IMG/VR virus record: IMGVR_UViG_3300021256_000075
Coordinates: 1 to 64,000 of that record
Origin: a virus
Taxonomy: Duplodnaviria; Heunggongvirae; Uroviricota; Caudoviricetes
Strand: one strand, 5' to 3'
DNA length: 64,000 nt
The first letter of the stretch is position 1, and each line of letters begins with the position of its first letter. Below the pieces are notes generated by a model. The model searched no databases and had not been told where the DNA came from. It saw only the letters and a program-made list of their open reading frames with translations. A program made the translations under genes and the position numbers. Shown piece by piece: positions 1 to 62,526 of the stretch.

Positions 1-705
1 GCCACAAATATCTCGGCCACAGGCAGGCTTGTCGGAGGTAACTGGACGTTTGATACAAACGGCGGCAAGTATTCAGACTCTGATGGAAGAAAAGTGGTCA
101 TGGAAATTCTCCCAGGCGGTCGGGAGGCGGACGGCGCAGAGCTTGCGGATAATCCGTCAGAATATCGGGGTTATTTCCATGTGAGCAATTGTGATTCGCT
201 ATACGGGGATGACCTGAGTTACAGTCATAACGTGTTTATTCGTGGCAAACGAATCATCCTGATGGCTGGAAAGGATAACGAACAGAAAGCCATCATGGGA
301 CTGTTTAAGAGTGGTGAGGGATCTGGCACGCAGTTTTCTTTCTTCCCTTATACAGATTCGTGCGGGAATATCGGTTCATCAGTCAGACGATGGGATTATG
401 TGCGTGGCGCACATAATTACAGCACTTCATCATCCAGAAAGCGAAAAAAGAACATTCGGAGTATTGAAGATGCCGGTTCGATTATTGATGCACTTCAGCC
501 TGTAACGTTTGATTATAAATCAGACCACAGACATTCTGCTGGATTCATCCTGGAAGATGTGTATAAGGTGGATCCGCTGTTCTGCGATGTAAAAGGGGAT
601 GACTTTGAACATGGCGGACTTTTTTATGAGCAGTTCATCCCATACCTCGTCAAAGAGGTTCAGTCACTGAGAAGACGCATGAAAAAGATGGAGGAATCTG
701 CATGA
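1..705 (+). CDS. tail fiber protein, C-terminal part (ORF open from nt 1, continues upstream) with intramolecular-chaperone-like C-terminal domain
   Basis: No stop in frame 1 before the listed Met; C-terminus ...TFDYKSDHRHSAGFILEDVYKV...LVKEVQSLRRRMKKME resembles auto-cleaving chaperone (peptidase S74-type) domains of phage fibers. Confidence 0.45.
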   Translation, partial: ATNISATGRLVGGNWTFDTNGGKYSDSDGRKVVMEILPGGREADGAELADNPSEYRGYFHVSNCDSLYGDDLSYSHNVFIRGKRIILMAGKDNEQKAIMGLFKSGEGSGTQFSFFPYTDSCGNIGSSVRRWDYVRGAHNYSTSSSRKRKKNIRSIEDAGSIIDALQPVTFDYKSDHRHSAGFILEDVYKVDPLFCDVKGDDFEHGGLFYEQFIPYLVKEVQSLRRRMKKMEESA

Positions 706-2513: not shown

Positions 2514-2866
2514 TGGCTTTGGGAGCTGCATGGAGACCTTTGCGGGGAACCACTGCTCAGTGGAATGCGAGGCCTTCATTTATTCCGGAGGATGGGCAGG
2601 TAATTGCCTATACGGATTATCGGGCGAAGATTGAGGAAGACGGTACGACAAAGCTGGTTGCCGGATTTAAGTTTGGGGATGGAAAGACATACGCCATCGA
2701 TCTTCCCTTCGTCAACGAAAGTGTTGCTACTCAGATCGAAGAAGAACTGAGGGCGCACACATCAAATGAGAAGATTCACGTCTCACCAACCGACAGGAAC
2801 AGGTGGGACGGGAAGCTTAACTCCACTATCCGTGGAGAGACGTTGGTACTTTCGAACGACCTGTGA
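2513..2866 (+). CDS. hypothetical tail-associated protein
   Basis: ORF start overlaps stop of upstream gene. Confidence 0.4.
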   Translation: MALGAAWRPLRGTTAQWNARPSFIPEDGQVIAYTDYRAKIEEDGTTKLVAGFKFGDGKTYAIDLPFVNESVATQIEEELRAHTSNEKIHVSPTDRNRWDGKLNSTIRGETLVLSNDL

Positions 2867-2886
2867 GAAAAAGGAGTGGTATCACA

Positions 2887-4110
2887 ATGGCTGAAATCAG
2901 CAAAATTCAACTTCCCAGCGGTAGTATTTATGACATTAAGGACTCGGTAGCCCGTGAGATGGCGGCCGGCACCATCCACCTTGTGGAAGGTACCTGCACA
3001 ACGCCTCTTGTGGACAAGGCGACCACAAACCCGATCATCATCGATGACGAATCCTATACGGCAAAAAAGGCCGATGCGGTCATCTACAACAACAAAGAGT
3101 TCGTCTTTGATGGGACGCAGTGGCACGAGTTTGGTGACCTGACGGGTCTCGGATCTCTCGCGTTCAAGAACAGCGCATCCGGATCCTTCACCCCTGAAGG
3201 CACGGTCAGCCAGCCGACCTTCACGGGCGAGGAAATGACCTCGACCGGCACTGTTGCCGCAACAGGCACGGTTTCCCAGCCGACATTCACGGGCGATGAG
3301 ATGACCAGCACCGGATCTGTCACGGCAGCCGGCACGGTCAGCCAGCCCACCTTCACCGGTGACGAGATGACCAGTACGGGTACTTTCCAGCCCACTGGTA
3401 CGGTCAGCCAGCCGACCTTTGAGGGTGCGCAGGGCAACGTCTCTGTCAGCGGTACTCCTGCCGGAAGCATCGGGGTTGGTACAGGAACGGCGAACTATAC
3501 GCCTGCCGGAACGGTGTCTGCACCGAACATCTCGGTTACGCCCACAAAGGACAACACCGGCTATATGGCCAGCAGTGCTACAGGCGGTGGCGTGGTGACG
3601 GCTGGTACGGCTGCGCAGGCAACGATGCCCGAACTCGCTATGTCGGTCGAAAACGAGACCCTGTCGCTGAACTGGACGGCGGGATCCTTCACGCCGAACA
3701 CGCCGACCGCTGTTACTCTGCCGACCTTTGCTGCGAAGGAGGTTGTCACTGACATTGAGTCTGCGACCGCATCTGTTCCGACCTTCACGGGAACTGGCGT
3801 GGATCTGGAGTTTACAGGCACTGCCATGAACTCTACCGGAAAGTTCACTCCGGAAGGCACGGTTTCTCAGCCCACCTTCAGCGGAAACACGGGCAATGTG
3901 TCCGTATCCGGAACGCCGGAAGGCACGGTTTCCCAGCCGACCTTCACCGGATCTGCTGCGGCTGTTTCCGTCACCGGCACTCCGGCTGGCACGGTTTCTC
4001 AGCCCACGTTCACCGGAACGGAAGCACCTGTTTCTGTCAAGGGAACTCCCACCGGCGATGTCAGCCAGCCCACCTTCACCGGTACTGCCGGAAACGTCAC
4101 CGTATCCTGA
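2887..4110 (+). CDS. tail fiber protein with about 8 tandem GTVSQPTF(T/S)G repeats
   Basis: RBS aaaggag before ATG 2887; about 60-nt tandem repeats at 3180-3420 and 3840-4100 in protein and DNA. Confidence 0.5.
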   Translation: MAEISKIQLPSGSIYDIKDSVAREMAAGTIHLVEGTCTTPLVDKATTNPIIIDDESYTAKKADAVIYNNKEFVFDGTQWHEFGDLTGLGSLAFKNSASGSFTPEGTVSQPTFTGEEMTSTGTVAATGTVSQPTFTGDEMTSTGSVTAAGTVSQPTFTGDEMTSTGTFQPTGTVSQPTFEGAQGNVSVSGTPAGSIGVGTGTANYTPAGTVSAPNISVTPTKDNTGYMASSATGGGVVTAGTAAQATMPELAMSVENETLSLNWTAGSFTPNTPTAVTLPTFAAKEVVTDIESATASVPTFTGTGVDLEFTGTAMNSTGKFTPEGTVSQPTFSGNTGNVSVSGTPEGTVSQPTFTGSAAAVSVTGTPAGTVSQPTFTGTEAPVSVKGTPTGDVSQPTFTGTAGNVTVS

Positions 4111-9040: not shown

Positions 9041-9046
9041 ATGACA

Positions 9047-9095
9047 AAGAGGTCTTGCAGGATGCGAAAAGTCCTGTGAGACCTCTTTTTTTCGT
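9047..9095 (+). terminator. rho-independent terminator
   Basis: agaggtct...agacctct stem followed by T7. Confidence 0.5.
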
Positions 9096-9119
9096 TCTGC
9101 AATTTTTTTTAAAAACCTA

Positions 9120-9148
9120 TTGACACAATACGTTAATAGGGTTATAAT
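9120..9148 (+). promoter_or_regulatory. strong sigma-70 promoter (moron)
   Basis: TTGACA-17-TATAAT; near-identical copy at 9702-9730 with a similar leader. Confidence 0.55.
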
Positions 9149-9196
9149 GTGCACATAAGGTCAAGCGAACGAAACGACACACAGGAGGGCGCAAAA

Positions 9197-9427
9197 ATGA
9201 AGATGTATCAGATCGTAGAACAGGGCAGAGGACTCAACGAGTCCTATATGCTCGGCTTTGACAGCGATGCCGAACTTGGCAGATATCTCCACGGCAAGGA
9301 GGCAATGTCTGAGATAAAGAACTACTCCATCGTAGCCTGGAGCGTCCGCGATGACGGCGCCGGCTATGTGGATGTTGAAAGGTACTGGAGATGGAATGCA
9401 ATCCACAAAGCCATGGGGATTGCATGA
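9197..9427 (+). CDS. hypothetical moron protein (76 aa)
   Basis: RBS acaggaggg; own promoter and downstream terminator-less spacer. Confidence 0.4.
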   Translation: MKMYQIVEQGRGLNESYMLGFDSDAELGRYLHGKEAMSEIKNYSIVAWSVRDDGAGYVDVERYWRWNAIHKAMGIA

Positions 9428-9496
9428 CCCGTCTGAATCAGACAGGCCGAGCCTGAGCGGCTAATCTCCGGCAGAAAGAAGGAGAACGTGGATACA

Positions 9497-9661
9497 ATGA
9501 AAAAATGGTACGCAACAGTAACGCGGGAGGACGGCACCCAGTTCGAGATTGGCGGATATTCTGAAAAAGAAATCCAGAAGGATTTGAGAGACATCCACAG
9601 GACAGGTTTTGCTGATCTGGACAAGGCAAGCGTGGAAGTGTACAGCATCAGCATATTCTAA
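9497..9661 (+). CDS. hypothetical small protein (54 aa)
   Basis: RBS aaggagaacg; ATG 9497; not in ORF track (<60 aa). Confidence 0.3.
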   Translation: MKKWYATVTREDGTQFEIGGYSEKEIQKDLRDIHRTGFADLDKASVEVYSISIF

Positions 9662-9701
9662 TCCGGCCAAAAAGAAATTTCAGAAATTTTAAAATTCCAT
9701 G

Positions 9702-9730
9702 TTGACATAATACGCCAACAGGGTTATAAT
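9702..9730 (+). promoter_or_regulatory. strong sigma-70 promoter (moron)
   Basis: TTGACA-17-TATAAT, paralog of 9120-9148. Confidence 0.55.
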
Positions 9731-9779
9731 ACAACCATCGAACGACAAACCAACCTAACCACGACAGGAGGCACAAACC

Positions 9780-10211
9780 ATGAAGAACATCAATCTCTCC
9801 GCCGTTTACGGCATGGACGTTACCCACGAGCAGCTGACCACTGCTGGATTCCGGAAGGTGGATGAACGCGGCGGCTCATACGTCACGGTCACGTACTACA
9901 ATCCGGAAACGGATGAGGGTGGCAGCCTCCTGGCTCGTGACTATGAGTACAGCAACTGCTCCCGTGACAATGACTCCATCTATAACGCCAGTATAGATGA
10001 GAGAGTCCGCAGGAACTGGATGCACCAAAACGGCTGCATCTTTGTCGGAGACACCGTGGTTGTGGTCAAGGGCCGGAAGGTTCCGAAAGGAACATTCCAC
10101 ACGGTCATCCGGATCAAGGAGATCCATGACCGCTTCGGCCGGTGGCAGGCTGACTACCTCATCTTCGATGATGGTCTGGCAACGAACATCACGAACTGCG
10201 TTCTTGCCTGA
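9780..10211 (+). CDS. hypothetical moron protein (143 aa)
   Basis: RBS acaggagg; followed by terminator 10212-10250. Confidence 0.45.
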   Translation: MKNINLSAVYGMDVTHEQLTTAGFRKVDERGGSYVTVTYYNPETDEGGSLLARDYEYSNCSRDNDSIYNASIDERVRRNWMHQNGCIFVGDTVVVVKGRKVPKGTFHTVIRIKEIHDRFGRWQADYLIFDDGLATNITNCVLA

Positions 10212-10250
10212 TACAGTGAAAAGCTCCCCTGAAGGGGGGCTTTTTTTTTA
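10212..10250 (+). terminator. rho-independent terminator
   Basis: gctcccctgaaggggggc hairpin plus T9. Confidence 0.5.
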
Positions 10251-10356
10251 TGTCCTTAAAACCGCACAGGAGCCCGGAAAAAGTGTCTCCCGGATGTCAT
10301 AAAAGCTTCTTCCTGGTGACATTTTGATGGACTGCCTCCAAAACTATACTTTCCCC

Positions 10357-10587
10357 ATGAGTACGACAGATATTGATGACATCATGGCTGCCCTGCGCAA
10401 CCAGGGAGTGTCACGTGAATTTTGCGAACAGATCCGCAGGAATGCGGATGCCGGTGCACTGGATTATGCACTGAATCTGATACGGGGAGAAGAAGATGGG
10501 TGTTTGGCTGGACGTAAATGTCAATCCGCTCGGGAGGAGAGTGGGAGACTGCGCTGTCAGAGCCATTGCCGTAGCCCTCGATACTGA
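10357..10587 (+). CDS. cassette protein 3: small helical protein (end uncertain, overlaps next gene)
   Basis: DIDDIMAALRNQGVSREFCEQIRRNADAGALDYALNLI is homologous to the 54-aa ORF 53232-53396. Confidence 0.25.
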   Translation: MSTTDIDDIMAALRNQGVSREFCEQIRRNADAGALDYALNLIRGEEDGCLAGRKCQSAREESGRLRCQSHCRSPRY

Positions 10588-10876
10588 CTGGGAAACGGCG
10601 TACTGCCTCCTGGCATCCTGCGGCTATGACACAAAAAACATCATGAATGCCGATGCGGTAATCGGCAAAACGCTCCGGGATCATGGCTTCAAGCGTGCGG
10701 TAATCCCGAACAGCTGTCCGGACTGCTACTCCGCAGAGGAATTCTGCGAGGACCACCCGACCGGCACGTACGTGCTTTTCTTCGGCGGGCATGTAGCTTG
10801 TGTGAAGGATGGGAAGCTGTACGACACCTGGAACAGCAGTTATGAAATCCCGCAGTACTACTGGGAAAAGGAGTGA
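10496..10876 (+). CDS. cassette protein 4: papain-fold Cys-His-Asp enzyme (C39-like peptidase or transglutaminase-like)
   Basis: Ordered motifs GDCAVRAIAVAL (Cys), GGHVACV (His), DTWNSS (Asp/Asn); homolog 53368-53754. Confidence 0.45.
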   Translation: MGVWLDVNVNPLGRRVGDCAVRAIAVALDTDWETAYCLLASCGYDTKNIMNADAVIGKTLRDHGFKRAVIPNSCPDCYSAEEFCEDHPTGTYVLFFGGHVACVKDGKLYDTWNSSYEIPQYYWEKE

Positions 10877-10881
10877 AGTGA

Positions 10882-11349
10882 ATGGCCCTGTTTAACAATG
10901 GATTTCCGACAAGCTACCCCCAGATGTATCCGCAGCAGTATCCGCAGACCTACCAGCAGATGCAGGGAATTCAGCAGCCACAGAGTCCCGTGCAGAACTC
11001 CGGGCTGATCTGGATTCAGGGTCTTCAGGCAGCGAAATCCTTCCTGATAGCACCGAATACTACGGTTCCGCTTTTTGACTCGGAGGCACAGTGCATCTAC
11101 CTGAAATCATCCGATGCCAGCGGAATGCCCTCGCTGAAAATCCTCGATTACACGATACGCGATCAGACGCAGGGAAACGGCGTTTTAAGCACTCCCGGAA
11201 AAACGGAAGAGAATCCACCCAAGTACGTCACAAAAGCCGAATATGAGGCACTCCAGGCCGAATTTGATGACCTTAAAGCAAAGTTCGAAAGTTTCACGTC
11301 TAAGCGACCGATTAAGCCGATGAAAAAGGAGGAGCTTGCAAATGAATGA
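10882..11349 (+). CDS. cassette protein 5: Q/P/Y-rich N-terminus protein
   Basis: YPQMYPQQYPQTYQQMQGIQQPQSP then conserved IWIQGLQAAKSFLIAPNTTVPLFDSEAQCIYLKS; homolog 53757-54221. Confidence 0.5.
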   Translation: MALFNNGFPTSYPQMYPQQYPQTYQQMQGIQQPQSPVQNSGLIWIQGLQAAKSFLIAPNTTVPLFDSEAQCIYLKSSDASGMPSLKILDYTIRDQTQGNGVLSTPGKTEENPPKYVTKAEYEALQAEFDDLKAKFESFTSKRPIKPMKKEELANE

Positions 11350-11545
11350 ACTGTACAAGCAGATCCAGCCGAATCAGAACCCGACAGAAGGATTCATTCA
11401 GCGGTTTCAGCAGTTCCGTCAGGGCATAAAAGGAGATCCGAAGGAACAGATTCAGGCTCTCATGAATTCTGGGAGGGTCTCCCAGGCACAGTACAACAAC
11501 GCCTACCAGATGGCCAGCCAGCTCATAAGGATGTTCGGCAAATAA
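11336..11545 (+). CDS. cassette protein 6: small Q-rich helical protein (69 aa)
   Basis: Homolog 54211-54426 (QRFQQFRQ...AQYNNAYQMA). Confidence 0.4.
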   Translation: MQMNELYKQIQPNQNPTEGFIQRFQQFRQGIKGDPKEQIQALMNSGRVSQAQYNNAYQMASQLIRMFGK

Positions 11546-11596
11546 AAAAGTCAGTCCGTAGACTGACTAATCTGCGACCGCATTTGCCGCAACCAC
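11543..11596 (-). ncRNA. antisense mini transcription unit 3 (about 50-nt RNA)
   Basis: Minus-strand promoter TTGATC-17-TATAAT (11603-11631), then hairpin gtcagtc/gactgac and T6. Confidence 0.35.
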
Positions 11597-11632
11597 ATAA
11601 CCATTATAGCGGATGTATGACTCCGGATCAAC

Positions 11633-11689
11633 AAAAAAAAGGCCAGCAAAGCTGACCTTTGGGGGAAATCCGTGACATTGCCGCGCAGC
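11633..11689 (-). ncRNA. antisense mini transcription unit 2 (about 55-nt RNA)
   Basis: Minus-strand promoter TTGACA-17-TAGAAT (11696-11724), then hairpin ggtcagc/gctggcc and T8. Confidence 0.35.
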
Positions 11690-11725
11690 AAAGACATTCT
11701 ACCAAAACAAAGGGTTCCTGTCAAC

Positions 11726-11787
11726 AAAAAACCACCCGGCGGGTACCGGGTGGAAAATGAAAGGAAATCCATGAAGCAGTACAGATC
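11726..11787 (-). ncRNA. antisense mini transcription unit 1 (about 60-nt RNA)
   Basis: Minus-strand promoter TTGACA-17-TATACT (plus coords 11794-11822), then hairpin ccacccgg/ccgggtgg and T7. Confidence 0.35.
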
Positions 11788-11882
11788 AAATTGAGTATAC
11801 ACATCAGACAGAAAAATGTCAAGCTTACAAATTCCGGCGCGCAGGAATTTTGTAATAAATCACAAGTAAAGGAGAAAACGAA

Positions 11883-12806
11883 ATGGCTCTTACTGATGAA
11901 GCAAACGGAATGGGAACGACTATGCTTGTGCAGCCTTCCAACTACAACGGGAACGGCGGAGACGGATTCTTCGGTGCCAATGGCATTTGGTTTCTGATCC
12001 TCTTCATCCTGCTTGGAGGCTGGGGGAACGGCTTCGGCGGAGGCTTTGGAAACGGCTACGGTGCCAATGCAATGGCCGATATGTACCCGTGGTTTAATCA
12101 GTCCAATCAGATCAACGGTGGTTTCCGCGACCAGATGATCAGCGGGAAGATCGATGCGATCAACAACAACCTTGTTTCCGGATTTGGTGACGTGCAGCTC
12201 GGAATTGCCGGCATCAACCAGAACATCTGTCAGACCGGCAACGGAATCGTGTCGGCGGTGACGGGTGCGCAGAATGCCCTGACATCCCAGATGTATGCCA
12301 ATCAGATCGCTGATATGGAACGGTCCTTCGCCGCCCAGACAGCTCAGACAGCCGGCATGACCGCTCTTCAGGCGCAGCTGGCGCAGTGCTGCTGCGACAA
12401 TCGCGCCGCAACGGCCGACCTGAAATACACGGTAGCAACCGAGAACTGTGCGGACCGGACTGCGGCTGCCCAGAACACCCGTGACATTATCGATGCGCAG
12501 ACCAGGGGAACCCAGGCAATTCTGGACAAACTGTGCGCTCTTGAGCTGGATGGCGTGAAGAACCAGCTGGCACAGGCACAGCGTGAGAATGTCGGGCTCC
12601 AGAATCAGCTGAACATGGCGAACCTTTCCGCTTCCCAGGCGGCTCAGACTGCGGCGTTCCAGCAGGGAATGAACAACGAGGTGGATGCCTTGTATAACCG
12701 TCTCAAAAATTGCCCGGTCCCCAGTCAGCCGGTATATGGCAATCAGCCGATTTTCACATGCGGCGGTAACAGCGGCTGCGGCTGCGGCTGCGGCGCGATG
12801 GCGTAA
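11883..12806 (+). CDS. cassette protein 7: Gly-rich membrane protein with Cys-rich C-terminus ending CGCGCG
   Basis: N-terminal GIWFLILFILLGGWGNGFGGGFGNGYG TM/Gly-rich; QCCCDN, C-terminal TCGGNSGCGCGCGAMA encoded by (GCTGCG)n; homolog 54488-55411. Confidence 0.55.
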   Translation: MALTDEANGMGTTMLVQPSNYNGNGGDGFFGANGIWFLILFILLGGWGNGFGGGFGNGYGANAMADMYPWFNQSNQINGGFRDQMISGKIDAINNNLVSGFGDVQLGIAGINQNICQTGNGIVSAVTGAQNALTSQMYANQIADMERSFAAQTAQTAGMTALQAQLAQCCCDNRAATADLKYTVATENCADRTAAAQNTRDIIDAQTRGTQAILDKLCALELDGVKNQLAQAQRENVGLQNQLNMANLSASQAAQTAAFQQGMNNEVDALYNRLKNCPVPSQPVYGNQPIFTCGGNSGCGCGCGAMA

Positions 12807-12818
12807 GAGGTGAGAGAC

Positions 12819-13274
12819 ATGGCAGAGTTTGTGCAGAACGAGATCCAGCTTGTACAGCCGAATCAGAACGTTTTACTACAGTCCTCCATTCCGTGCAACA
12901 GAGGGTATGTCTATCACCGGAATGGATCCGGAATCCTAACTCTCCGTGGCGTTGTAAACGGTGCGTGCGGATGCTTCGCACGCTATCAGGTCACCTTCAA
13001 TGGAAACATCGCCGTTCCGGAAGATGGAACAGTCGGACCGATTGCCATTGCGCTGGCACTGGATGGTGAACCCATTCAGACCAGCCGGGCAATCGTAACG
13101 CCTGCGGCAGTCGATGAGTACTTCAACGTCACATCCACGGCAATCATCACGATCCCGAGAGGATGCTGCGAGAACCTGTCCGTGGAAAATGTGTCGTTCG
13201 GCGCGACTGCAGCAGATGCACCGACAGCCATCAATGTCCAGAACGCCAACCTGACCGTATCGAGAATAGCCTGA
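12819..13274 (+). CDS. cassette protein 8: Cys-containing beta-rich protein (152 aa)
   Basis: NGACGCFARY...PRGCCENLS; homolog 55424-55888; ATG 12819 with RBS agaggtgagag. Confidence 0.5.
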   Translation: MAEFVQNEIQLVQPNQNVLLQSSIPCNRGYVYHRNGSGILTLRGVVNGACGCFARYQVTFNGNIAVPEDGTVGPIAIALALDGEPIQTSRAIVTPAAVDEYFNVTSTAIITIPRGCCENLSVENVSFGATAADAPTAINVQNANLTVSRIA

Positions 13275-13290
13275 GAAAGGAGAGAAGGAA

Positions 13291-13701
13291 ATGGATAAAG
13301 TCAAAGAACTCACAACGATGTGCGAGACGTTGTTTAAAGAGATCGCTGACATGAATAAGAAGATTGAGAACGCCAACGGCAAAATGTCTGCCGGTGACCT
13401 GGAAGCGATCCAGAAGCTGATGCATTCCGTGAAGTCTGCGAAAACCTCCCTGGCGATGATCGAAGCCGAGGAAGGATCCTCGAATGATGACGGCACTAAG
13501 TACAACAGCAACCGCAGCCGCCGGATGAGTTACGGGATGCCGTACTATGGGTATATGCCTTCCTACGGATACCGTCCGGAGATGGGATATTCCAGGCATG
13601 GAGATTTTGTGGATGATCTGCAGGAAGTCATGATGGATGCTCCCAACGACAATGTGCGCAGAGAGATCCAGAAGCTGATTGATAAGGTATCGATGATGTG
13701 A
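13291..13701 (+). CDS. cassette protein 9: N-terminal coiled coil plus Gly/Tyr-rich low-complexity region
   Basis: YGMPYYGYMPSYGYRPEMGY; homolog 55906-56355 with a longer G/Y/N tract. Confidence 0.5.
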   Translation: MDKVKELTTMCETLFKEIADMNKKIENANGKMSAGDLEAIQKLMHSVKSAKTSLAMIEAEEGSSNDDGTKYNSNRSRRMSYGMPYYGYMPSYGYRPEMGYSRHGDFVDDLQEVMMDAPNDNVRREIQKLIDKVSMM

Positions 13702-13707
13702 TGTTAA

Positions 13708-13745
13708 AGAGGGTTGCCTTGAGGGGCAATCCTCTTTTTTGCATA
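13708..13745 (+). terminator. rho-independent terminator ending cassette 1
   Basis: gagggttgcc/ggcaatcctc stem plus T6. Confidence 0.5.
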
Positions 13746-13933
13746 AAAAAAGATCCGGTCATGCCTGAACCGGATCAACTTTGTAAGGAGAATTCCTCAT
13801 GCGGACATGATAGCACTGACAATTCTGAAAGTCAATATGATACGAGAAAAATTATAAAAATACAGTTGACGATTATATTATAATGGTGTATCATTGATGC
13901 ATCGGCACATCCAGGTATTCAACCGGTGCGGAG

Positions 13934-14305: not shown

Positions 14306-14584
14306 ATGACAGAACAAAAAATCATCCGGAACATTGATGTAATCATCCGGAATCTTAAGATGCTGAAGGAAAATTATGAGGAGGCAGACGGGGATGCGGA
14401 AGAAACCTCGCTGTATGACGAGTACGGGAACGATCTGACCTGGCAGATAGACTGTCATCCGGTGTTTAAAGGAGATCCGCCGTGCATAAACGGATTGAAG
14501 GGAATCGAATACAACGGAAAAGGCTGGGAAGAAAACTGCCGGGAATGCAAGAAAAACTGGCTGTTAAGGAGGTACGATTCATGA
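14306..14584 (+). CDS. small Cys-rich protein
   Basis: C-terminal CRECKKNWLL, paralogous to the C-terminus of 14966-15349. Confidence 0.4.
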   Translation: MTEQKIIRNIDVIIRNLKMLKENYEEADGDAEETSLYDEYGNDLTWQIDCHPVFKGDPPCINGLKGIEYNGKGWEENCRECKKNWLLRRYDS

Positions 14585-17716: not shown

Positions 17717-17887
17717 ATGTGCAAAAGTTGCGGAAAATGTGCAGATCTGGATATTAATTGGGAAACTGATGAGGCTTACTGTGTAGCGGCAGATGGAATG
17801 GAGATCTTCCTGAGGCGGGGACAGAGATGCCCGAAGTGGTGTCCTCTAAAAATATCTGTAGATGAAAGGGGGAGAGAACATGGATGA
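17717..17887 (+). CDS. small Cys-rich protein (56 aa)
   Basis: MCKSCGKCADL...CPKWCP; not in ORF track. Confidence 0.3.
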   Translation: MCKSCGKCADLDINWETDEAYCVAADGMEIFLRRGQRCPKWCPLKISVDERGREHG

Positions 17888-24349: not shown

Positions 24350-24436
24350 AAAAAGTTGCAAAAACATTCAAAAGTCGGCGGTATTTGGCGGTTCACGGTT
24401 GTTTATGTTGGTTAAATATGTGCTATAATACTATCG

Positions 24437-24545
24437 TCAACAGAGTATGGGTGTTGCACACATGAAGAGTTTCTTCCTCTAACAAACTTTTCTATTTCCC
24501 GAAAAGGCTCACGAGTTATGGTCATCTCGTGGGCCTTTTACTTTT
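24437..24545 (+). ncRNA. small transcription unit (about 105 nt) upstream of the tRNA
   Basis: Extended -10 TGCTATAAT at 24421-24429; strong terminator ggctcacgag...ctcgtgggcc plus T-run at 24506-24545. Confidence 0.3.
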
Positions 24546-24592: not shown

Positions 24593-24667
24593 AGTGGATT
24601 AGCCAAGAGGTAAGGCATGGGACTTTGAATCCTGTATCCGTAGGTTCGAATCCTACATCCACCGCCA
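24593..24667 (+). tRNA. tRNA-Gln (anticodon UUG), CCA encoded
   Basis: Manual cloverleaf: acceptor agtggat/atccacc with A1:C72 mismatch, U8, D-arm with A14/GG, anticodon loop CUUUGAA, T-arm gtagg-TTCGAAT-cctac, G73, CCA. Confidence 0.5.
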
Positions 24668-54426: not shown

Positions 54427-54487
54427 CAAGGTTACAGCCTCGGTGCACAGGGGATTGTAATAGATTTTCAGAAAGGATTTTTTAACA

Positions 54488-56787: not shown

Positions 56788-56816
56788 TTGACTTCTGTAT
56801 AGGTAAGCTGTATACT
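56788..56816 (+). promoter_or_regulatory. phage C early promoter P1
   Basis: TTGACT-17-TATACT with AT-rich UP region. Confidence 0.55.
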
Positions 56817-56851
56817 ATGTACATAAATTAACTGATATGGAGGATGAAACC

Positions 56852-57994
56852 ATGACTAACACCTACCGCATTGCTGAAGACAACCGCGAGAATGTTGCGA
56901 AGAAGATCAACCGCCTTCTCAAGAAGGCGAACCAGTACGGTTTCGAACTGGAAGTAAGCTTCGGAGAAACCTATGTTGCTGAAATCCCCGTGGTTAATGA
57001 GGAAGAGGGAACGAGCTACACAGAGTATTATGAAGTGTTCGATCTTACAATCACTTCTGAAGGCCGCATCAAAAAGGGCGACTATGAAGTTCTCGCAAAG
57101 CTCGACCACACGGACGAAGGAAACGTTGTGACCTTGATCGATGCTGATGAGTGCAAGCCGGAATGGACAACAATCAAGCCTTTCTGCAAGCACTGCAACA
57201 GCAACCACAATCTCAAGTATACTTACATCGTGAAGGGAGCAGAAGGAGAAAAACAGATCGGAAAAACCTGCTTGAAAGACTATTGCGGAATCGACCCGCA
57301 GTCGGTTGGCATTTGGAATGAGCTGAATGCAGTTGCTACTTCCGAGGACATTGAGCACGAGCAGAGAGATTTAACCATACATTCTCACATGATTCGGACG
57401 GTTGAAGCTCTGGCGCTTGCCATTGAAATCATGGCAGAGCAGGGATACGTTAAGAGTGATGAGAAAGGATGCAACAAGATTAAACTGGCAGAAAGGATTG
57501 CTAAGAAAGCAACGCCTTCCGAGGAATCCATGAAGAAGGCTGAAGAAATCGGAAAGGCGATCTTGGAAATCAGCCTTGAAGATGCTTGCAGAGCAATGCT
57601 CAACACGGTGCAGACACTGCTCAAAAACAAGTTCTCCAAGCTCAACTACCTCGGATACATCGCATATGCTCCTCTGGCATACGAGATGTACGCCAAGAAA
57701 GAGGCAGAAAGGAAGGCAAAAGAGCAGAGCGAAAAGAATTCCCAGTACATCGGGAACATTGGTGAAAAGGTGAGCATTGCAGTTGCTGAATGTAAGCTTT
57801 GCACCAGTTGGGAAAACCAGTGGGGATACACCTACCTCTATAAGATCACTGATCAGCAGGGAAATGTGTTCATTTGGTACGCTTCCTCCTGCATCACTCA
57901 CGAAGTAAGCAAGATCACTGGGACAGTGAAACAGCACTCCGAACGGGATGGAGTAAAACAGACGATAATCACCAGATGCAAAGCAGTGGCATAA
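56852..57994 (+). CDS. phage early protein (381 aa) with CxxC pairs
   Basis: ATG 56852 after RBS ggagga. Confidence 0.45.
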   Translation: MTNTYRIAEDNRENVAKKINRLLKKANQYGFELEVSFGETYVAEIPVVNEEEGTSYTEYYEVFDLTITSEGRIKKGDYEVLAKLDHTDEGNVVTLIDADECKPEWTTIKPFCKHCNSNHNLKYTYIVKGAEGEKQIGKTCLKDYCGIDPQSVGIWNELNAVATSEDIEHEQRDLTIHSHMIRTVEALALAIEIMAEQGYVKSDEKGCNKIKLAERIAKKATPSEESMKKAEEIGKAILEISLEDACRAMLNTVQTLLKNKFSKLNYLGYIAYAPLAYEMYAKKEAERKAKEQSEKNSQYIGNIGEKVSIAVAECKLCTSWENQWGYTYLYKITDQQGNVFIWYASSCITHEVSKITGTVKQHSERDGVKQTIITRCKAVA

Positions 57995-58057
57995 ACCACT
58001 GCTTTTCTTTTGTTTTCCGGCAGGAAAAAATTTTTCAAACTTTTTTTCAAAAACCCC

Positions 58058-58086
58058 TTGACAGTTATATAGGCTAGCTGTATAAT
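58058..58086 (+). promoter_or_regulatory. phage C early promoter P2
   Basis: TTGACA-17-TGTATAAT (extended -10); spacer ataggctagctg conserved. Confidence 0.6.
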
Positions 58087-58116
58087 GAGTACATCAAATG
58101 AGGGAGGGACAACACC

Positions 58117-58719
58117 ATGAAGAAAGCAGAACTGAGCTACACCGCACGGATGAACGATATGATCAAGGCAAACGCAAGCCTTGAAAGAGCTAAGAAGAGC
58201 TACGATAAGAAGCTTGCAAACGCTGTAAAGCTCGGAGTCGACCAGATGACCAACGAAGAGCGGCTTGCATGGCTGAAGACCGTTCCTTGTGACGAATACG
58301 GATTTATGCAGGACAAAGAAGCGATTAAGAAGAACGGCGCTTGGTTTGATCTCCTTATAGCCCGGCAGAATCTGGAGGGTGCAGAATACAAGGTACAGAA
58401 AGCAGAAGAACAGCTGAACAAAGCAGAAGAAGCTTTCCAGAATGTAAAGGCTGAAGAAGAAATGATGGCAGATGCCAAGATGAAAGAAGCCCTTTGGGAA
58501 GAGGAATTCGAGAAGGAACAGAAGGAATGGGCGAAGGACGGAATCAACCTCATGAAGAGATACGAGGGAATGACTCCGAAGGGACAGCACTTCATGATTT
58601 ACGGGAACAGCGGATGGACAATGAGGTCTCGCCACTGCGTAACCCTCTACGTTGGAGGAAACGTGATCTTCACTTCCGGCGAGTTCTGGAGAGCATACAT
58701 GGAGATCAAAGCAAGGTAA
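58117..58719 (+). CDS. coiled-coil early protein
   Basis: ORF with RBS gagggaggg. Confidence 0.45.
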   Translation: MKKAELSYTARMNDMIKANASLERAKKSYDKKLANAVKLGVDQMTNEERLAWLKTVPCDEYGFMQDKEAIKKNGAWFDLLIARQNLEGAEYKVQKAEEQLNKAEEAFQNVKAEEEMMADAKMKEALWEEEFEKEQKEWAKDGINLMKRYEGMTPKGQHFMIYGNSGWTMRSRHCVTLYVGGNVIFTSGEFWRAYMEIKAR

Positions 58720-58795
58720 GATAAAGGCCGAGCGGAGCGGCTAAACTCCGCAACCTTGCTTCAAAAATTTCTTCAAAAAAGTTTTAAAAAGGTGC

Positions 58796-58824
58796 TTGAC
58801 AGTTTTATAGATAGGCTGTATAAT
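58796..58824 (+). promoter_or_regulatory. phage C early promoter P3
   Basis: TTGACA-17-TGTATAAT. Confidence 0.6.
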
Positions 58825-58853
58825 AGGAGCATAAATTAAAGGAGGATGAAACA

Positions 58854-59159
58854 ATGCTTAGTGAACTTACTATCAAGGCTCTCGAGGCGAAGGGCTTCAG
58901 CCGTTGGCAGAAAGGCGGCTATGATCGCCTGTACATCAATGCTTTCCATCTGGGCCTTGAATGTGCCTATCACAAAACTTGGAGCATCAAGCTTGCCGAG
59001 TTCCGCGGTGATCACATCAGCAACTCGGAAGCGTACCGAATGAAGAACGAGAAGACCTACATCAATGTGGAAAACGGTAAAGTCTTCTCCGGCAGGGATG
59101 ACTTCCGGGCGCTTGCACAAGAAATGCTTAACGAGGCAATAGCCTCTGTAAACGAGTGA
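58854..59159 (+). CDS. hypothetical early protein
   Basis: RBS aaggagg. Confidence 0.45.
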   Translation: MLSELTIKALEAKGFSRWQKGGYDRLYINAFHLGLECAYHKTWSIKLAEFRGDHISNSEAYRMKNEKTYINVENGKVFSGRDDFRALAQEMLNEAIASVNE

Positions 59160-59172
59160 AAAGAGAGGAGAA

Positions 59173-59472
59173 ATGAACATGACACAGCTTGGGAAATTCA
59201 AGGTATCTCTTCAAATCAAGGATACCAAGAGTGGAAAAAGGCAGACACTTGAAGGGTTTGTTTCCTTCGATCAAAACGAGAAACGGTATGGGAACGGCGT
59301 GTGCATGGTGGTTGAGGGACTTGGCGAACCGTTTGGAGAGCAGGGTTATGACATCCGCTATGATACGGACTTTCACGAGAAAATGCTCATCCAGTATATT
59401 GCAGACTGGTACACGAACAGATTTACACAGAGGTTTGTGCTTACTGGGATAAGCATCATAGAGGCGGAGTAA
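59173..59472 (+). CDS. hypothetical early protein
   Basis: RBS gagaggag. Confidence 0.4.
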   Translation: MNMTQLGKFKVSLQIKDTKSGKRQTLEGFVSFDQNEKRYGNGVCMVVEGLGEPFGEQGYDIRYDTDFHEKMLIQYIADWYTNRFTQRFVLTGISIIEAE

Positions 59473-59536
59473 AAGGGACAGCAAGGAGAGGCATCACGCA
59501 AGATGCATCTCCAGAGAAAAGAGAGGAGAAACGAAC

Positions 59537-59905
59537 ATGGCACTTTTCGGATTACCAACAGGAGAATTTGACCTGCTTTTGAAGCATAAGGGTCGTGGGA
59601 GGTACAAGACGGAATGGCAGACCGTCATGTTTGCAGACAGGCTAGACTTGGAAGATGTCGCGTCAGTAGTTGAAGACTGGTCGAAAAACTATAATGTTGT
59701 TGGAGCAAGGTACAACGGTAAAGCGGTAGATATTCCAACCAAGTACCATTGGGAATTCTCCATTAGTCCTACGGAGAATGAAGGATACTTCAACACCTAT
59801 GAAGAAGCCATTAGGGAAGCGACACGGCGCAGAAGGGCAAACAAAAAGGAAAAAGATAAAAGCAAGTGGTTACGGTCTGGCATGCCAGTTGTGGTATATG
59901 ATTAA
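59537..59905 (+). CDS. hypothetical early protein
   Basis: RBS gagaggag. Confidence 0.4.
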   Translation: MALFGLPTGEFDLLLKHKGRGRYKTEWQTVMFADRLDLEDVASVVEDWSKNYNVVGARYNGKAVDIPTKYHWEFSISPTENEGYFNTYEEAIREATRRRRANKKEKDKSKWLRSGMPVVVYD

Positions 59906-59961
59906 CAGTCTTGGCGAGAGGTACTTGAAACACAGTGCCTCTCAAGAAAGGGGAAGGGAAA

Positions 59962-60174
59962 ATGATCACACTTAAGAAGGCAGTTGGAGTCGGGAGAGTA
60001 ATGAGACTCGTTTCTTACTACCAGAGAGAAACGATAAGCACACACGAGTTCGCCAAGGCAATCACTGAGATGTGGGAGAATGGAGAACTTGCATCCGAAG
60101 AGGAAGAAACCATTCTGAAAAACATCGGAAGATTGAAGAATCTGAGACTCGAAAGAACGGAGGCAGGGGCATGA
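59962..60174 (+). CDS. hypothetical early protein
   Basis: ATG 59962 after ggggaaggg. Confidence 0.35.
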   Translation: MITLKKAVGVGRVMRLVSYYQRETISTHEFAKAITEMWENGELASEEEETILKNIGRLKNLRLERTEAGA

Positions 60175-60356
60175 TAACAAGGCCGATCACAGTGGATAAG
60201 GGCAGATGGTATGTGCAGAAAGCCGGGAGACACTTGATGTTATACGATGGTTTCACCGGGGAGCATATCAGAGACTTCCTGTCATGGGAAAAACTGACAG
60301 ACTATATCTGGGAGCAGAGAGCGAAGAAGGAAAAGAAAAATGAAGCGCATCTATGA
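60171..60356 (+). CDS. hypothetical early protein
   Basis: ATGA overlap. Confidence 0.35.
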   Translation: MITRPITVDKGRWYVQKAGRHLMLYDGFTGEHIRDFLSWEKLTDYIWEQRAKKEKKNEAHL

Positions 60357-60600
60357 AAAGATGGCAGTTCAGACACTTGTGTGGTGTCTGAGGCCGTACA
60401 CGAACATAACAATCATAGATAAGCTGATTGGTGGCGGAGAAATCACCGTATACGAAGGCAAGGTATCTGACGCGAACAAAATTAATGCCAAGTATAATGG
60501 CATCTCTGAATACAATGCCATGAAGGCCGCTGTTCGCGATATTGTCCCGGTAGACAATGGCGTAATCATCCGCATTGACACAAGGAACGAGGAGTTCTGA
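60340..60600 (+). CDS. hypothetical early protein
   Basis: ORF. Confidence 0.35.
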   Translation: MKRIYEKMAVQTLVWCLRPYTNITIIDKLIGGGEITVYEGKVSDANKINAKYNGISEYNAMKAAVRDIVPVDNGVIIRIDTRNEEF

Positions 60601-60615
60601 GAAAGGAGAGTCACG

Positions 60616-60828
60616 ATGGAAAAGAAGCTTTACGCATATGGACTATTACTGAGGCCGAGAGGCCCAATGTGCCAACCCAAAGGATATGTGGACTGGGTGG
60701 ACTTTGATGACAAGTGCAAGCTTTCTTCCAGCAAGGAAGTATGGTGCGTTCTCTGGTATGGCAGGGAACTTTCCGAAAAGGAAACTCACAATTTCGAAAT
60801 GACAAGATTGGAGGAAGAAGACAAATGA
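60616..60828 (+). CDS. hypothetical early protein
   Basis: RBS aaggagag. Confidence 0.35.
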   Translation: MEKKLYAYGLLLRPRGPMCQPKGYVDWVDFDDKCKLSSSKEVWCVLWYGRELSEKETHNFEMTRLEEEDK

Positions 60829-61082
60829 AACTGAAGGAACTCTGGAACGCTTATAAGGAAGCCAAGGTAAAAACACTTGCTCTCGAAAAGCAGATGAAAG
60901 CGGAAGGGCCGAGCATGTCAAGAAATGACATGTGGTTCGCAGTGTACGGAAACGAGTGGATGGCAGGGCAGGAAGTCGCGAGGGAGCTGATGGTTTCTTA
61001 CGGATACGACACGCACGAGGCCAACAGGATGGTATACCGCAGGCCGGAAGAAGTGGAAATGCTGATTAACAAAGTGGCGTAG
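60825..61082 (+). CDS. hypothetical early protein
   Basis: ATGA overlap. Confidence 0.35.
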   Translation: MKLKELWNAYKEAKVKTLALEKQMKAEGPSMSRNDMWFAVYGNEWMAGQEVARELMVSYGYDTHEANRMVYRRPEEVEMLINKVA

Positions 61083-61096
61083 GAAGGTGACGAAGC

Positions 61097-61279
61097 TTGA
61101 AGAATAATCCATGTAACATTTGTAAAAACAAAGTACGGTGTTCCGATATTGACTGTGTTCTCCATAGAGCTTGGAACAAGTGCCTGTACTGTAAGCAGTA
61201 TGAATGCTTTCTGAATTACGATGGTGATTGTGTTCTGTCGCTGTACGATGACTGCGGGAGCAGGAGAGGGGAAGAATAA
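61097..61279 (+). CDS. small Cys-rich protein (TTG start)
   Basis: CNICKNKVRC...C..C. Confidence 0.3.
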   Translation: MKNNPCNICKNKVRCSDIDCVLHRAWNKCLYCKQYECFLNYDGDCVLSLYDDCGSRRGEE

Positions 61280-61281
61280 CA

Positions 61282-61593
61282 ATGTTTACACGAATTGAAT
61301 TTTCACAGGATACAATTGAGTGCAAGATAAAAGTCAATTTCAAAATACTTATGTATATAATCAGTATCATAAGAGCGAACGTTGAATGGGACGAGAATTA
61401 TATCAAAATATTGGAAAAGGATGCTTCCAAAGTAAAAAGCCGTGATACTCTTGTTCGTATTCAGACTCTTTTGGAAAATAGAAAACATGACATTGAAATA
61501 GGGAAGGCTATTTATACAAAACTTTATAATTTCATTTTCGGCAATGATCCTGAGCTTGATTTGCGTGACTGTATGCCGGAAGAAAAGTGTTGA
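61282..61593 (+). CDS. hypothetical early protein
   Basis: ORF, AT-rich. Confidence 0.35.
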   Translation: MFTRIEFSQDTIECKIKVNFKILMYIISIIRANVEWDENYIKILEKDASKVKSRDTLVRIQTLLENRKHDIEIGKAIYTKLYNFIFGNDPELDLRDCMPEEKC

Positions 61594-61619
61594 CACTGCC
61601 TATAGAAAAGGCGTATACT
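61590..61619 (+). promoter_or_regulatory. phage C early promoter P4
   Basis: TTGACA-18-TATACT. Confidence 0.45.
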
Positions 61620-61642
61620 GAGGAGAAGGAGGATGAAAGCGC

Positions 61643-61849
61643 ATGTCAACACTGCCGGAATGCTTACAGAGAGCAAAAGCAAAGTACCAGAAGAAAAACG
61701 GAGTAACGGTGACATTAATCCTGCATAATGAGTATGATGCGGATATCATCGAGAAACTTCAGACCGTTGAAAACAGAGCAGGATATGTCAAGGGGCTTAT
61801 CCTCGAGCAGATAGCAAAAGAGGGGGGTGCTCCAGATGCCAGTAAATGA
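61643..61849 (+). CDS. small DNA-binding-like protein (paralog A)
   Basis: Paralog of 61836-62024. Confidence 0.4.
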   Translation: MSTLPECLQRAKAKYQKKNGVTVTLILHNEYDADIIEKLQTVENRAGYVKGLILEQIAKEGGAPDASK

Positions 61850-62024
61850 GGCACTTGCGAAGGCGCAGAAGAAGTACCGGAAAGAGCATCAGACCCTTAT
61901 AAGCATCCGACTTTACAAGACTTCGAACAAGGACATTCTGGACAGGCTTGAACAGGAGCAGAACCGATCTGGATTTATCAAGAAACTGATACGGGAAGAC
62001 ATTCAAAGAAAAAAAGAAGGCTGA
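61836..62024 (+). CDS. small DNA-binding-like protein (paralog B)
   Basis: Shared KAKAKYQKK/KAQKKYRKE...NR(A/S)G(Y/F)(V/I)K(G/K)LI pattern. Confidence 0.4.
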   Translation: MPVNEALAKAQKKYRKEHQTLISIRLYKTSNKDILDRLEQEQNRSGFIKKLIREDIQRKKEG

Positions 62025-62079
62025 TTTCAGTCTTCTTTTTTTGTCCGAAAATTTTCCTCAAAAAAATGAAAATTGGTGC

Positions 62080-62108
62080 TTGACAGTTTTATAGGCTAGC
62101 TGTATAAT
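62080..62108 (+). promoter_or_regulatory. phage C early promoter P5
   Basis: TTGACA-17-TGTATAAT; near-identical to P2. Confidence 0.6.
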
Positions 62109-62139
62109 GTTGACATACTGATAGAGGAGGAACAAGACA

Positions 62140-62358
62140 ATGACAATCAAACTTTTCGTGGACGGTGAAGAGTACATTCCGCAGGCGAATGAAGCCAAGG
62201 CAGACCACATTGAAATGTGGTACGACCGCCACCAGAAACTTTGGACTCTGTACCCTGTTGACGCTGAAGGATTCCAGATAGCCGGAGCAGAGTATGGATA
62301 TGGAAAGAAAGAGGCGCTGAGAATTAAGAAAGAACTGGAAGAAGAATACGGCCTGTAA
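62140..62358 (+). CDS. hypothetical early protein
   Basis: RBS gaggagg. Confidence 0.4.
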   Translation: MTIKLFVDGEEYIPQANEAKADHIEMWYDRHQKLWTLYPVDAEGFQIAGAEYGYGKKEALRIKKELEEEYGL

Positions 62359-62497
62359 CTTGGAAAGGAGTAAGGAAGATGACAACGAAGGACAAACTGC
62401 ACATGATGCAGGAAATCGAGAAGCGGAACGAAAAGAGGCTTGCCGAGTACCTCGACAAGACCTCTGAAAAATAATTTCAAGAAAATGCAAAATACCT

Positions 62498-62526
62498 ATT
62501 GACATAACAATAGATAGGCTGTATAA
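62498..62526 (+). promoter_or_regulatory. phage C early promoter P6
   Basis: TTGACA-17-TGTATAAT. Confidence 0.6.

Follow-up and report, generated by a model that had tools for sequence, protein, structure and literature searches.

Three consecutive antisense promoter-terminator units, candidate small-RNA genes, at an insertion hotspot in an accessory operon of uncultured rumen phages

An antisense array between two genes of a phage cassette

The DNA studied here is a stretch of 64,000 nucleotides (nt) (positions 1 to 64,000 of the tailed-phage record IMGVR_UViG_3300021256_000075; in the following, the window), which consists of parts of two related phage genomes in tandem and carries two copies of an accessory gene cassette. 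In cassette copy 1 (10.5-13.7 kb) a gene for a protein of 67-69 amino acids (aa) (11342-11545, + strand; phrog_22984, function unknown) is followed by a gene for a 307-aa protein with a membrane segment and a Cys-rich C-terminus (11883-12806, + strand; phrog_16490, function unknown). The gap of 337 nt between them (11546-11882) is filled by an array on the opposite strand (11822-11543, minus strand) of three units, termed u1, u2 and u3, each with its own promoter, short predicted RNA and terminator-like hairpin.

By motif reading, the promoters are TTGACA-17-TATACT for u1 (11822-11794), TTGACA-17-TAGAAT with an upstream TG for u2 (11724-11696) and TTGATC-17-TATAAT for u3 (11631-11603). All three have a spacer of exactly 17 bp and alternate in register with three terminators. 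The u1 hairpin (11753-11732) is G+C-rich and has 9 pairs followed by T6, that of u2 (11660-11638) has 10 pairs and a T8 run which includes T's of the stem, and that of u3 (11568-11549) has 8 pairs and a T-run (11549-11544) that reaches into the TAA stop codon of the + strand gene upstream. With a start inferred about 7 nt past the -10 element, the predicted u1 RNA is ~62 nt long (11787-11726); promoter and terminator positions delimit predicted RNAs of ~60 nt for u2 (11689-11630) and ~54 nt for u3 (11596-11543). From one -35 element to the next the distances are 98 and 93 bp, and an identical 11-nt junction, TTTTTTGTTGA, occurs twice where the T-run of one unit abuts the -35 element of the next. 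An original prediction, made from the sequence alone, had described these three promoters with their exact spacers, the GC hairpin and T-run behind each of them and a periodicity of about 95 bp, and all of this was found at the positions it gave.

To judge whether such an arrangement could arise by chance, one fixed definition of a unit (promoter plus terminator) was applied to both strands of the window. It yielded nine units, three of them within this stretch of 280 bp. In 40 dinucleotide-preserving shuffles the average was 1.12 units per window, and no shuffle placed two of them within 300 bp of each other. A score of at least 10/12 is reached by just six minus-strand promoters of the window, and four of these belong to u1, u2, u3 and a fourth unit, u4, described below. 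The array is therefore a real feature, far beyond chance. Strong consensus promoters on the + strand cluster in accessory and early regions (9120, 9702, 13866 and 56788-62499), so the minus-strand units share the promoter class of the phage early genes.

The array is an addition to the cassette, as had been proposed. In cassette copy 2 the equivalent gap measures 61 nt (54427-54487), in agreement with the predicted ~60 bp; the median over 186 related loci is 91 nt, and in L253, L254 and L256, phages with 83-90% identity in the 154-aa neighbour protein, the gap is only 57-67 nt. The two cassette copies share 68-75% DNA identity and each encodes six proteins, all belonging to PHROG families without assigned function; sequence searches against Pfam, PHROGs, NCBIfam and PDB likewise matched nothing but families of unknown function. 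Butyrivibrio virus Ceridwen has the cassette as well, behind its endolysin gene. Along the window, tail-fibre and amidase genes (0-7 kb) precede cassette copy 1, early-type genes start at ~14 kb, the terminase gene and then structural genes extend from 26.7 kb to ~50 kb, and cassette copy 2 (53.4-56.4 kb) is again followed by early-type genes. Two moron-like units on the + strand (9046-10253) lie just upstream of cassette copy 1; they have perfect TTGACA-17-TATAAT promoters at 9120 and 9702 and strong terminators at 9052-9091 and 10219-10253, and enclose small open reading frames (ORFs) without family matches. A further promoter-terminator unit (24424-24544, + strand) stands directly upstream of the phage tRNA-Gln gene (24593-24667).

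On the + strand, terminators bound cassette copy 1 at 10219-10253 and 13709-13742, none lies between them, and no sigma-70-like + strand promoter was found in the gap or upstream of the cassette. With terminators flanking the cassette and none inside it, the cassette mRNA would have to cross the array. A conserved + strand RNA hairpin with the loop GGCGCGCA (11826-11854) in addition lies in the 5' untranslated region ahead of the 307-aa gene; it does not belong to the small RNAs, and only 3 nt separate it from the u1 -35 element. Its presence downstream of the array suggests that the gap region is transcribed as mRNA, and together with the terminator-free stretch 10253-13709 it would place the three RNAs opposite an internal untranslated region of the operon.

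The same hairpin occurs in copy 2 (54432-54460, + strand) and ~30-35 nt upstream of the 307-aa gene in many relatives, in total in 76 of 194 loci where shuffles predict 1.15. It is formed by 57 different stems, while a palindromic core of the loop is kept (for example GGCGCGCA, GGTGCACA and GAGTGCGCATA). G.U pairs outnumber A.C mismatches by 24:4, which argues that the element acts as + strand RNA. No Rfam family matched it, and it looks like an undescribed cis-regulatory or protein-binding element.

A fourth unit close to the end of the cassette

The combined motif and unit scan also revealed u4 (13835-13743, minus strand), whose promoter TTGACT-17-TATCAT with a TG occupies 13835-13807. Its predicted RNA of ~55 nt contains CAUGAGGAAUUCUCCUUAC, and its terminator (13776-13752) is followed by T7. 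The unit stands back to back with the + strand terminator of the cassette (13709-13742) and diverges from an early + strand promoter at 13866-13894. It is kept in the close relatives, and a u4-like unit is also present in the more distant locus L259. This unit, the recurrent use of the gap as an insertion site and the sequence motif of u1, u2 and u4 described in the following extend the original prediction.

Predicted RNA folds and an anti-Shine-Dalgarno motif

The predicted u1 RNA folds into a weak 5' hairpin, a single-stranded stretch UCCUUUCAUUUU preceded by CAUGG, and the terminator (z -3.7). The fold predicted for u2 is similar, with a small 5' hairpin, the single-stranded tract CACGGAUUUCCCCC / GGAUUUCCCCC and a terminator stem that includes one U.G pair, the + strand equivalent of which would be an A.C mismatch. 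In u4 a hairpin pairing GAGGA with UCUCC is followed by a linker and the terminator, so that the tract is partly paired. The u3 RNA has a longer 5' hairpin (UUGCG...CGCAG) followed by the terminator (z -4.1).

A motif of the form CA[U/C]-N3-9-CU-rich is present in u1, u2, u4 and the related units of the L001 family. Read as reverse complements, these sequences correspond to a Shine-Dalgarno sequence and a start codon at natural spacing (GAAAGGAAAUCCAUG, GGGGGAAAUCCGUG, AAGGAGAAUUCCUCAUG and AAGGAGAUCACCAUG). Shuffles of each RNA contain the motif with a frequency of 2-8%, values that overstate its significance, as the motif was defined after it had been seen.

The same sequences raise the question whether the region is coding. 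The + strand complements of u1, u2, u4 and the L001 unit can be read as a ribosome-binding site with a start codon (e.g., GAAAGGAAATCCATG and AAGGAGATCACCATG), and in L001 and L259 the ORFs that begin there run for 28 and ~38 codons; together with the 83-aa ORF on the minus strand (11551-11802) and a 40-aa ORF on the + strand (11672-11794) they could represent small proteins or leader peptides, and the short + strand ORFs could belong to a type I toxin-antitoxin pair. However, in the window the + strand ORFs from these starts have only 7, 40 and 3 codons; neither their length nor their sequence is constant between lineages, they are hydrophilic, not toxin-like, and the differences between L001, L162 and L163 in the promoter spacer would be non-synonymous. 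Neither of the two window ORFs has a PHROG match, which agrees with the earlier assessment of the 83-aa ORF as implausible. A coding role would also leave three promoters and three terminators in register unexplained, and we consider it very improbable. The type I toxin-antitoxin variant was rejected on the grounds of the same short, hydrophilic ORFs, which are not conserved between lineages. An array of type III antitoxin (ToxI-like) repeats was rejected as well: the units resemble each other only weakly and have a promoter and a terminator each, and there is no gene behind them on the minus strand.

Conservation of the units in related phages

Close relatives were found via the 154-aa neighbour protein. 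The full array is present at 97.5-98% identity in five independent metagenome contigs (L244-L247 and L249); a sixth, L263, begins 192 nt upstream of the 307-aa gene and has u1 and the start of u2, and the short contig L161, which spans u1, is 100% identical. Of six substituted positions listed for L245/L247 across the array (280 bp), three are in promoter spacers, two lie between the u3 -10 element and the start site and one is in the body of u2. None falls in a hexamer or a terminator stem, although with such small numbers the probability of sparing both by chance is ~0.1. L249 has one additional change in the single-stranded tract and one in the terminator loop of u1. Throughout L244-L249 and L263 the u1 hexamers are invariant while the spacers vary, and the u3 promoter of close relatives differs only in the spacer and just past the -10 element.

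More distant phages retain parts of the array. In L259/L260 the gap of 261 nt holds a u1-like and a u3-like unit, each with the promoter TTGACA-17-TACAAT. The u1-like unit has a different 5' hairpin sequence and the single-stranded tract UCCUUUUCUUUU, and its terminator stem shows a compensatory change of a G-C to a C-G pair (CCACCCGG/CCGGGTGG versus CCACCCCG/CGGGGTGG). Its u3-like neighbour keeps the 5' stem UUGCG/CGCAA with a different loop, and again a compensatory G-C to C-G change is found in the terminator (AGTCAGTC/GACTGACT versus AGTCACTC/GAGTGACT). A single u1-like unit is present in L001/L162/L163, where the 307-aa protein is 80-83% identical to that of the window; its promoter is TTGACT-17-TACAAT with invariant hexamers and a variable 17-bp spacer, and changes in the stem restore pairing.

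The pyrimidine tract (UCCUUU...UUUUCC) is the best-conserved part of the u1 RNA. Its core, T[CT]TCCTTT[TC]N0-5TTTTCC, is conserved in both L259/L260 and L001/L162/L163. Searching 1.48 Mb for this core gave 15 matches, of which 12 are accompanied by promoter and terminator and all belong to the u1 family; the remaining three have neither. The search recovered every member of the family in the searched sequence, and the family amounts to only six distinct sequences. In the predicted folds of the window and L259 the tract is single-stranded between a divergent 5' hairpin and the terminator, whereas the minimum-energy fold of the L001 unit pairs part of it. Overall the pattern fits selection on promoter, terminator and an RNA seed, and would be unexpected from coding or neutral DNA.

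Neither a 29-mer of u2 nor an 18-mer of u4 had a match in viral contigs. The u1 and u3 18-mers had one match each, in unrelated sequence without promoter or terminator, and these were taken as chance. A BLAST comparison with 240 related loci returned, apart from the identical contig L161, matches to the 5' untranslated region alone. Three units were found at no other sampled locus, and the full array is restricted to one narrow lineage. Because no other sampled locus has three units and the gaps of near relatives measure 57-67 nt, the array is taken as a recent lineage-specific build-up.

The three units resemble each other weakly (p ~0.01 for u1-u2, u2-u3 and u1-u4), with the common stretches CAYGGATTTCC in u1 and u2 and GCGGCAA(A)TG in u2 and u3. 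Their common origin is plausible; the shared junction and the weak pairwise similarities suggest that the array grew partly by duplication.

The identical T-run/-35 junction would also fit a recent neutral duplication, and the units could then be non-functional leftovers, either duplicated or remaining as shells of lost minus-strand genes such as homing endonucleases. Minus-strand HNH genes with their own promoters do occur at the same site in other phages, and the confinement of the full array to one narrow lineage would be expected. On the other hand, the RNAs show no similarity to the int-alpA leader of those endonuclease genes, and the compensatory stem changes and the conserved seed between lineages indicate purifying selection. 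The RNAs moreover carry anti-Shine-Dalgarno tracts where a gene remnant would have a ribosome-binding site, and the gene-remnant version was rejected on this point. We regard the leftover explanation in general as improbable, and the array as very probably functional.

The gap is an insertion hotspot

The survey of the gap covered 191 distinct related loci, drawn from collections of viruses, genomes and metagenomes. Exactly one minus-strand unit within 450 nt upstream of the 307-aa gene was found in 19 of them (~10%). The density of minus-strand units there is 0.226/kb, compared to 0.035/kb elsewhere on the minus strand and 0.024/kb on the + strand of the gap. The RNA bodies at the gap are unrelated between lineages. 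The gap is thus a recurrent insertion hotspot in this phage family.

Other inserts at this site are of different kinds. The gap of L180 holds two tandem units, the second of which matches the Rfam family DUF3800-VIII (RF03075; L180:2517-2583, minus strand) with 47.4 bits, a score at the gathering level, and has its own promoter and terminator. No DUF3800 gene was found among the called ORFs neighbouring this RNA. DUF3800-VIII belongs to a set of eleven RNAs, unrelated to one another, that accompany DUF3800 genes; several of them are terminator-ended, and none is known to have a function (Weinberg et al. 2017, PMC5737381). DUF3800 itself is an RNase H-like domain with links to retrons and Cas12 systems. 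In L003, L010/L011/L013, L022, L096 and L169 the site is occupied by minus-strand HNH homing-endonuclease genes with their own promoters.

The 5' leader of the endonuclease gene matches the Rfam motif int-alpA in L169 (899-965, minus strand) and L096 (2808-2873, minus strand), and the leaders in L010, L011 and L013 are closely similar. As the motif forms the 5' leader of HNH genes in the gap, this suggests that int-alpA is the leader of mobile endonuclease genes in these phages. The units upstream of the 307-aa gene in L009, L167, L180 and L198 have a common promoter form, TTGACAC..CACGGAAAC, and an inverted repeat with one arm in the promoter spacer and the other in the transcribed region, 30-45 nt further downstream, which could be an operator or an alternative structure. 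In L261 the 307-aa gene itself is apparently interrupted (359-1342) by a gene for 327 aa with a faint NUMOD1 match, which may be a homing endonuclease or an intron-like insertion. Outside the gap, L009 contains a type II hammerhead ribozyme (224-288, minus strand; 41.2 bits in Rfam with a gathering score of 37).

The recurrence of position and orientation with unrelated RNA sequences could mean that transcription itself matters and that the three strong convergent promoters, with their short terminated transcripts, form a barrier which stops or dampens + strand read-through from the genes upstream into the 307-aa gene. The units lie exactly between two co-transcribed genes where no + strand terminator is present, and three units in series would strengthen such an effect. 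However, most relatives, including copy 2, do without it, and the orientation bias is also simply explained by the operon-breaking effect that a + strand terminator would have. A barrier would also not require the u1 tract and the three-part architecture to be conserved in three sublineages while the spacers and the 5' hairpin drift. We therefore consider this explanation unlikely.

The orphan DUF3800-VIII RNA of L180 at the same site, with the links of DUF3800 to retron and Cas12 defence, points to another possibility, namely that the units are anti-defence decoys which mimic a CRISPR repeat, an RNA antitoxin or the partner RNA of a DUF3800-type nuclease and, if made in large amounts, titrate the defence protein that binds such an RNA. 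Strong constitutive-type promoters and small size fit the highly expressed solitary RNA anti-CRISPRs (PMC10651486), and the great differences between unit sequences of related phages are as expected in an arms race. The RNAs themselves speak another language: none of them resembles an Rfam family, the DUF3800 motifs included, they lack a common repeat-like unit, their pairwise similarity is weak, and the u3 family keeps its stem but varies its loop, which is unexpected for a sequence mimic. What is conserved in u1 is a pyrimidine tract without structure, as is typical of a pairing seed, and no anti-CRISPR or defence genes were recognised nearby. A decoy function appears quite unlikely to us.

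Possible function of the RNAs

The units are most likely RNA-only "morons", i.e., self-contained insertions from promoter to terminator placed opposite a conserved accessory operon. That they are three autonomous units of promoter, RNA and terminator, as had originally been claimed, is borne out by the retention of the array in near-identical phages and by the compensatory stems and the conserved tract in distant ones. Their transcription as discrete RNAs is likely, judging from the promoters and terminators. For their function we favour regulation by base pairing of small RNAs, to which we assign a probability of roughly 50%. With a host-type sigma-A promoter and an intrinsic terminator, the host RNA polymerase would make RNAs of ~55-62 nt without any phage factor.

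Such RNAs could act in two ways, which do not exclude each other. In trans, the single-stranded pyrimidine tract, which in u1, u2 and u4 follows CAU/CAC between the predicted 5' hairpin and the terminator hairpin, would most probably pair with the Shine-Dalgarno sequence and start codon of target mRNAs and block ribosome binding; the targets would be start regions of mRNAs of the host, the phage itself or rival phages. This mode is favoured because the u1 family has a conserved single-stranded seed. In cis, each RNA would be a perfect antisense of ~55-60 nt to the untranslated region before the 307-aa gene, as the cassette mRNA would have to cross the gap and all three RNAs would lie opposite its internal untranslated region. 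When both strands are transcribed, duplex formation with cleavage by RNase III, or head-on collision of polymerases, might lower or uncouple downstream expression.

Targets were sought within the window. In sliding duplex-energy scans of both strands the best non-self sites were 17790-17826 for u1 and 10117-10150 for u2, both marginal and neither at a start region. Complements of u1, u2 and u4 with up to three mismatches were limited to the units themselves. A scan of 252 candidate start regions for pairing gave no outlier, and its top site at 14482 was rejected, as it is not called as a gene start in close relatives. Seed-complement searches per lineage revealed no consistent target. A 13-nt exact complement of u3 (TCTGCGACCGCAT) lies at 3760-3772 (+ strand) in a 415-aa ORF (2863-4110) of the tail-fibre region; it was rejected as a target, being too weak (~0.04 expected by chance per RNA) and not at a start region.

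The lack of a convincing trans target in the window is one of several points that weigh against base-pairing regulation. Of the RNAs, u3 has no pyrimidine tract at all. The motif, itself a post hoc definition, occurs in none of 15 units from other phages at the gap, whose sequences are unrelated, and the insertion site may simply tolerate insertions. L259 has AAU in place of the anti-start CAU, and one substitution in a close relative falls within the u2 motif GGAUUUCC. Regarding the cis mode, the overlap of u1 with the cassette mRNA would end at ~11787, which leaves roughly 80 nt before the 307-aa gene's ribosome-binding site, and the T-run of u3 reaches only the stop codon of the gene upstream, so that neither a ribosome-binding site nor coding sequence is covered as in the phage antisense RNAs sar and OOP.

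The original prediction had offered small RNAs, antisense regulators or decoys as functions, and proposed a search for complementary targets and a comparison with Rfam. Its structural part stands. The target search gave no convincing candidate within the window, and no Rfam family matched the three RNAs. With Rfam 15 at the gathering threshold the sole match in the window is the tRNA, with none for u1-u4; a permissive scan of 11300-12000 gave at best 22 bits against thresholds of at least 39, and the u4 region was negative as well.

A more far-reaching possibility is that the gap is a dedicated and fast-evolving "RNA weapon" locus which the phages of this rumen family load with differing small RNAs, three here and two in L180 including the orphan DUF3800-VIII. 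The RNAs would then serve as decoys of host defence proteins or would mask ribosome-binding sites on mRNAs of the host or of rival phages, and RNAs of the u1 family would be diffusible and imitate the pyrimidine-rich 3' tail of 16S rRNA. This is a speculative and rather doubtful proposal.

Comparison with known systems

Phage-encoded small RNAs are well documented in enterobacterial prophages. For phages of Clostridia few have been defined, and to our knowledge none in this abundant group of uncultured rumen phages. The array would belong to a known kind, the phage-borne small-RNA genes, and is unusual in having three units end to end, a fourth nearby and a hotspot common to the whole phage family.

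Morons of tailed phages, as described by Hendrix and co-workers, are extra blocks with their own promoter and terminator between otherwise adjacent genes. The array likewise has its own promoters and terminators flanking the insert, and its flanking genes are adjacent in related phages. Unlike classical morons, which code for proteins expressed from the prophage, it contains no credible ORF and would encode short RNAs only, oriented against the flanking genes.

The RNAs sar of P22 and OOP of lambda are classical antisense RNAs of temperate phages; sar covers the ribosome-binding site of ant, and OOP lies across the 3' end of cII. As in these systems, each unit would give a terminator-ended small RNA from its own promoter, located in or next to an intercistronic region and directed against the operon. 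In contrast to sar and OOP, the array RNAs would overlap only untranslated spacer, which is missing from most relatives, and they come as a series of three.

LhrC and RsaE/RoxS are multicopy small RNAs of Firmicutes that follow the same design as the streptococcal csRNAs. The latter, the cia-dependent small RNAs, consist of two stem-loops separated by an unpaired tract, the complement of a Shine-Dalgarno sequence plus start codon (PMC3091779). In the csRNAs, as in u1, u2 and u4, the second stem-loop is the terminator and the tract complements Shine-Dalgarno and start (CAU, or CAC for GUG). The combination of two stem-loops and a tract is found in u1, u2 and u4, the tract of u4 being partly paired, and is absent from u3. 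The csRNAs also resemble the array in comprising several related copies with their own promoters, some of them adjacent. Unlike the csRNAs, the units are phage-borne, shorter (~55-62 nt) and antisense inside an operon, and have a plain TTGACA -35 element and no CiaR box; no csRNA model was among the Rfam matches up to E = 10. The units would work like anti-Shine-Dalgarno small RNAs of the csRNA/LhrC type, but owing to the different promoter type and the absence of a matching model they are not members of these families.

Among RNAs possibly linked to defence, the DUF3800-VIII RNA of L180 shares the gap, the strand and the possession of its own promoter and terminator with the array, whereas u1-u4 match neither RF03075 nor any other Rfam model. 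RNA anti-CRISPRs (Racrs) are defined by their resemblance to CRISPR repeats and are small, strongly expressed, solitary and promoter-adjacent in intergenic regions of phages (PMC10651486). The array units would likewise give small RNAs and are promoter-adjacent and intergenic, a likeness of architecture; unlike in Racrs, what is conserved in u1 is a pyrimidine tract that is predicted to be unstructured.

Compared with these systems the array overturns nothing, but it provides a clean and testable entry into RNA-based regulation or counter-defence in uncultured rumen phages. It offers a compact set of four candidate RNA genes for immediate tests, one family of which shows a clearly conserved seed, and the array-free cassette copy 2 is a natural comparison for the effect on the neighbouring operon. 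The hotspot itself receives unrelated RNA genes, the DUF3800-VIII RNA and homing endonucleases. If the RNAs should indeed serve in anti-defence or host takeover, the hotspot would offer an easy route to further examples.

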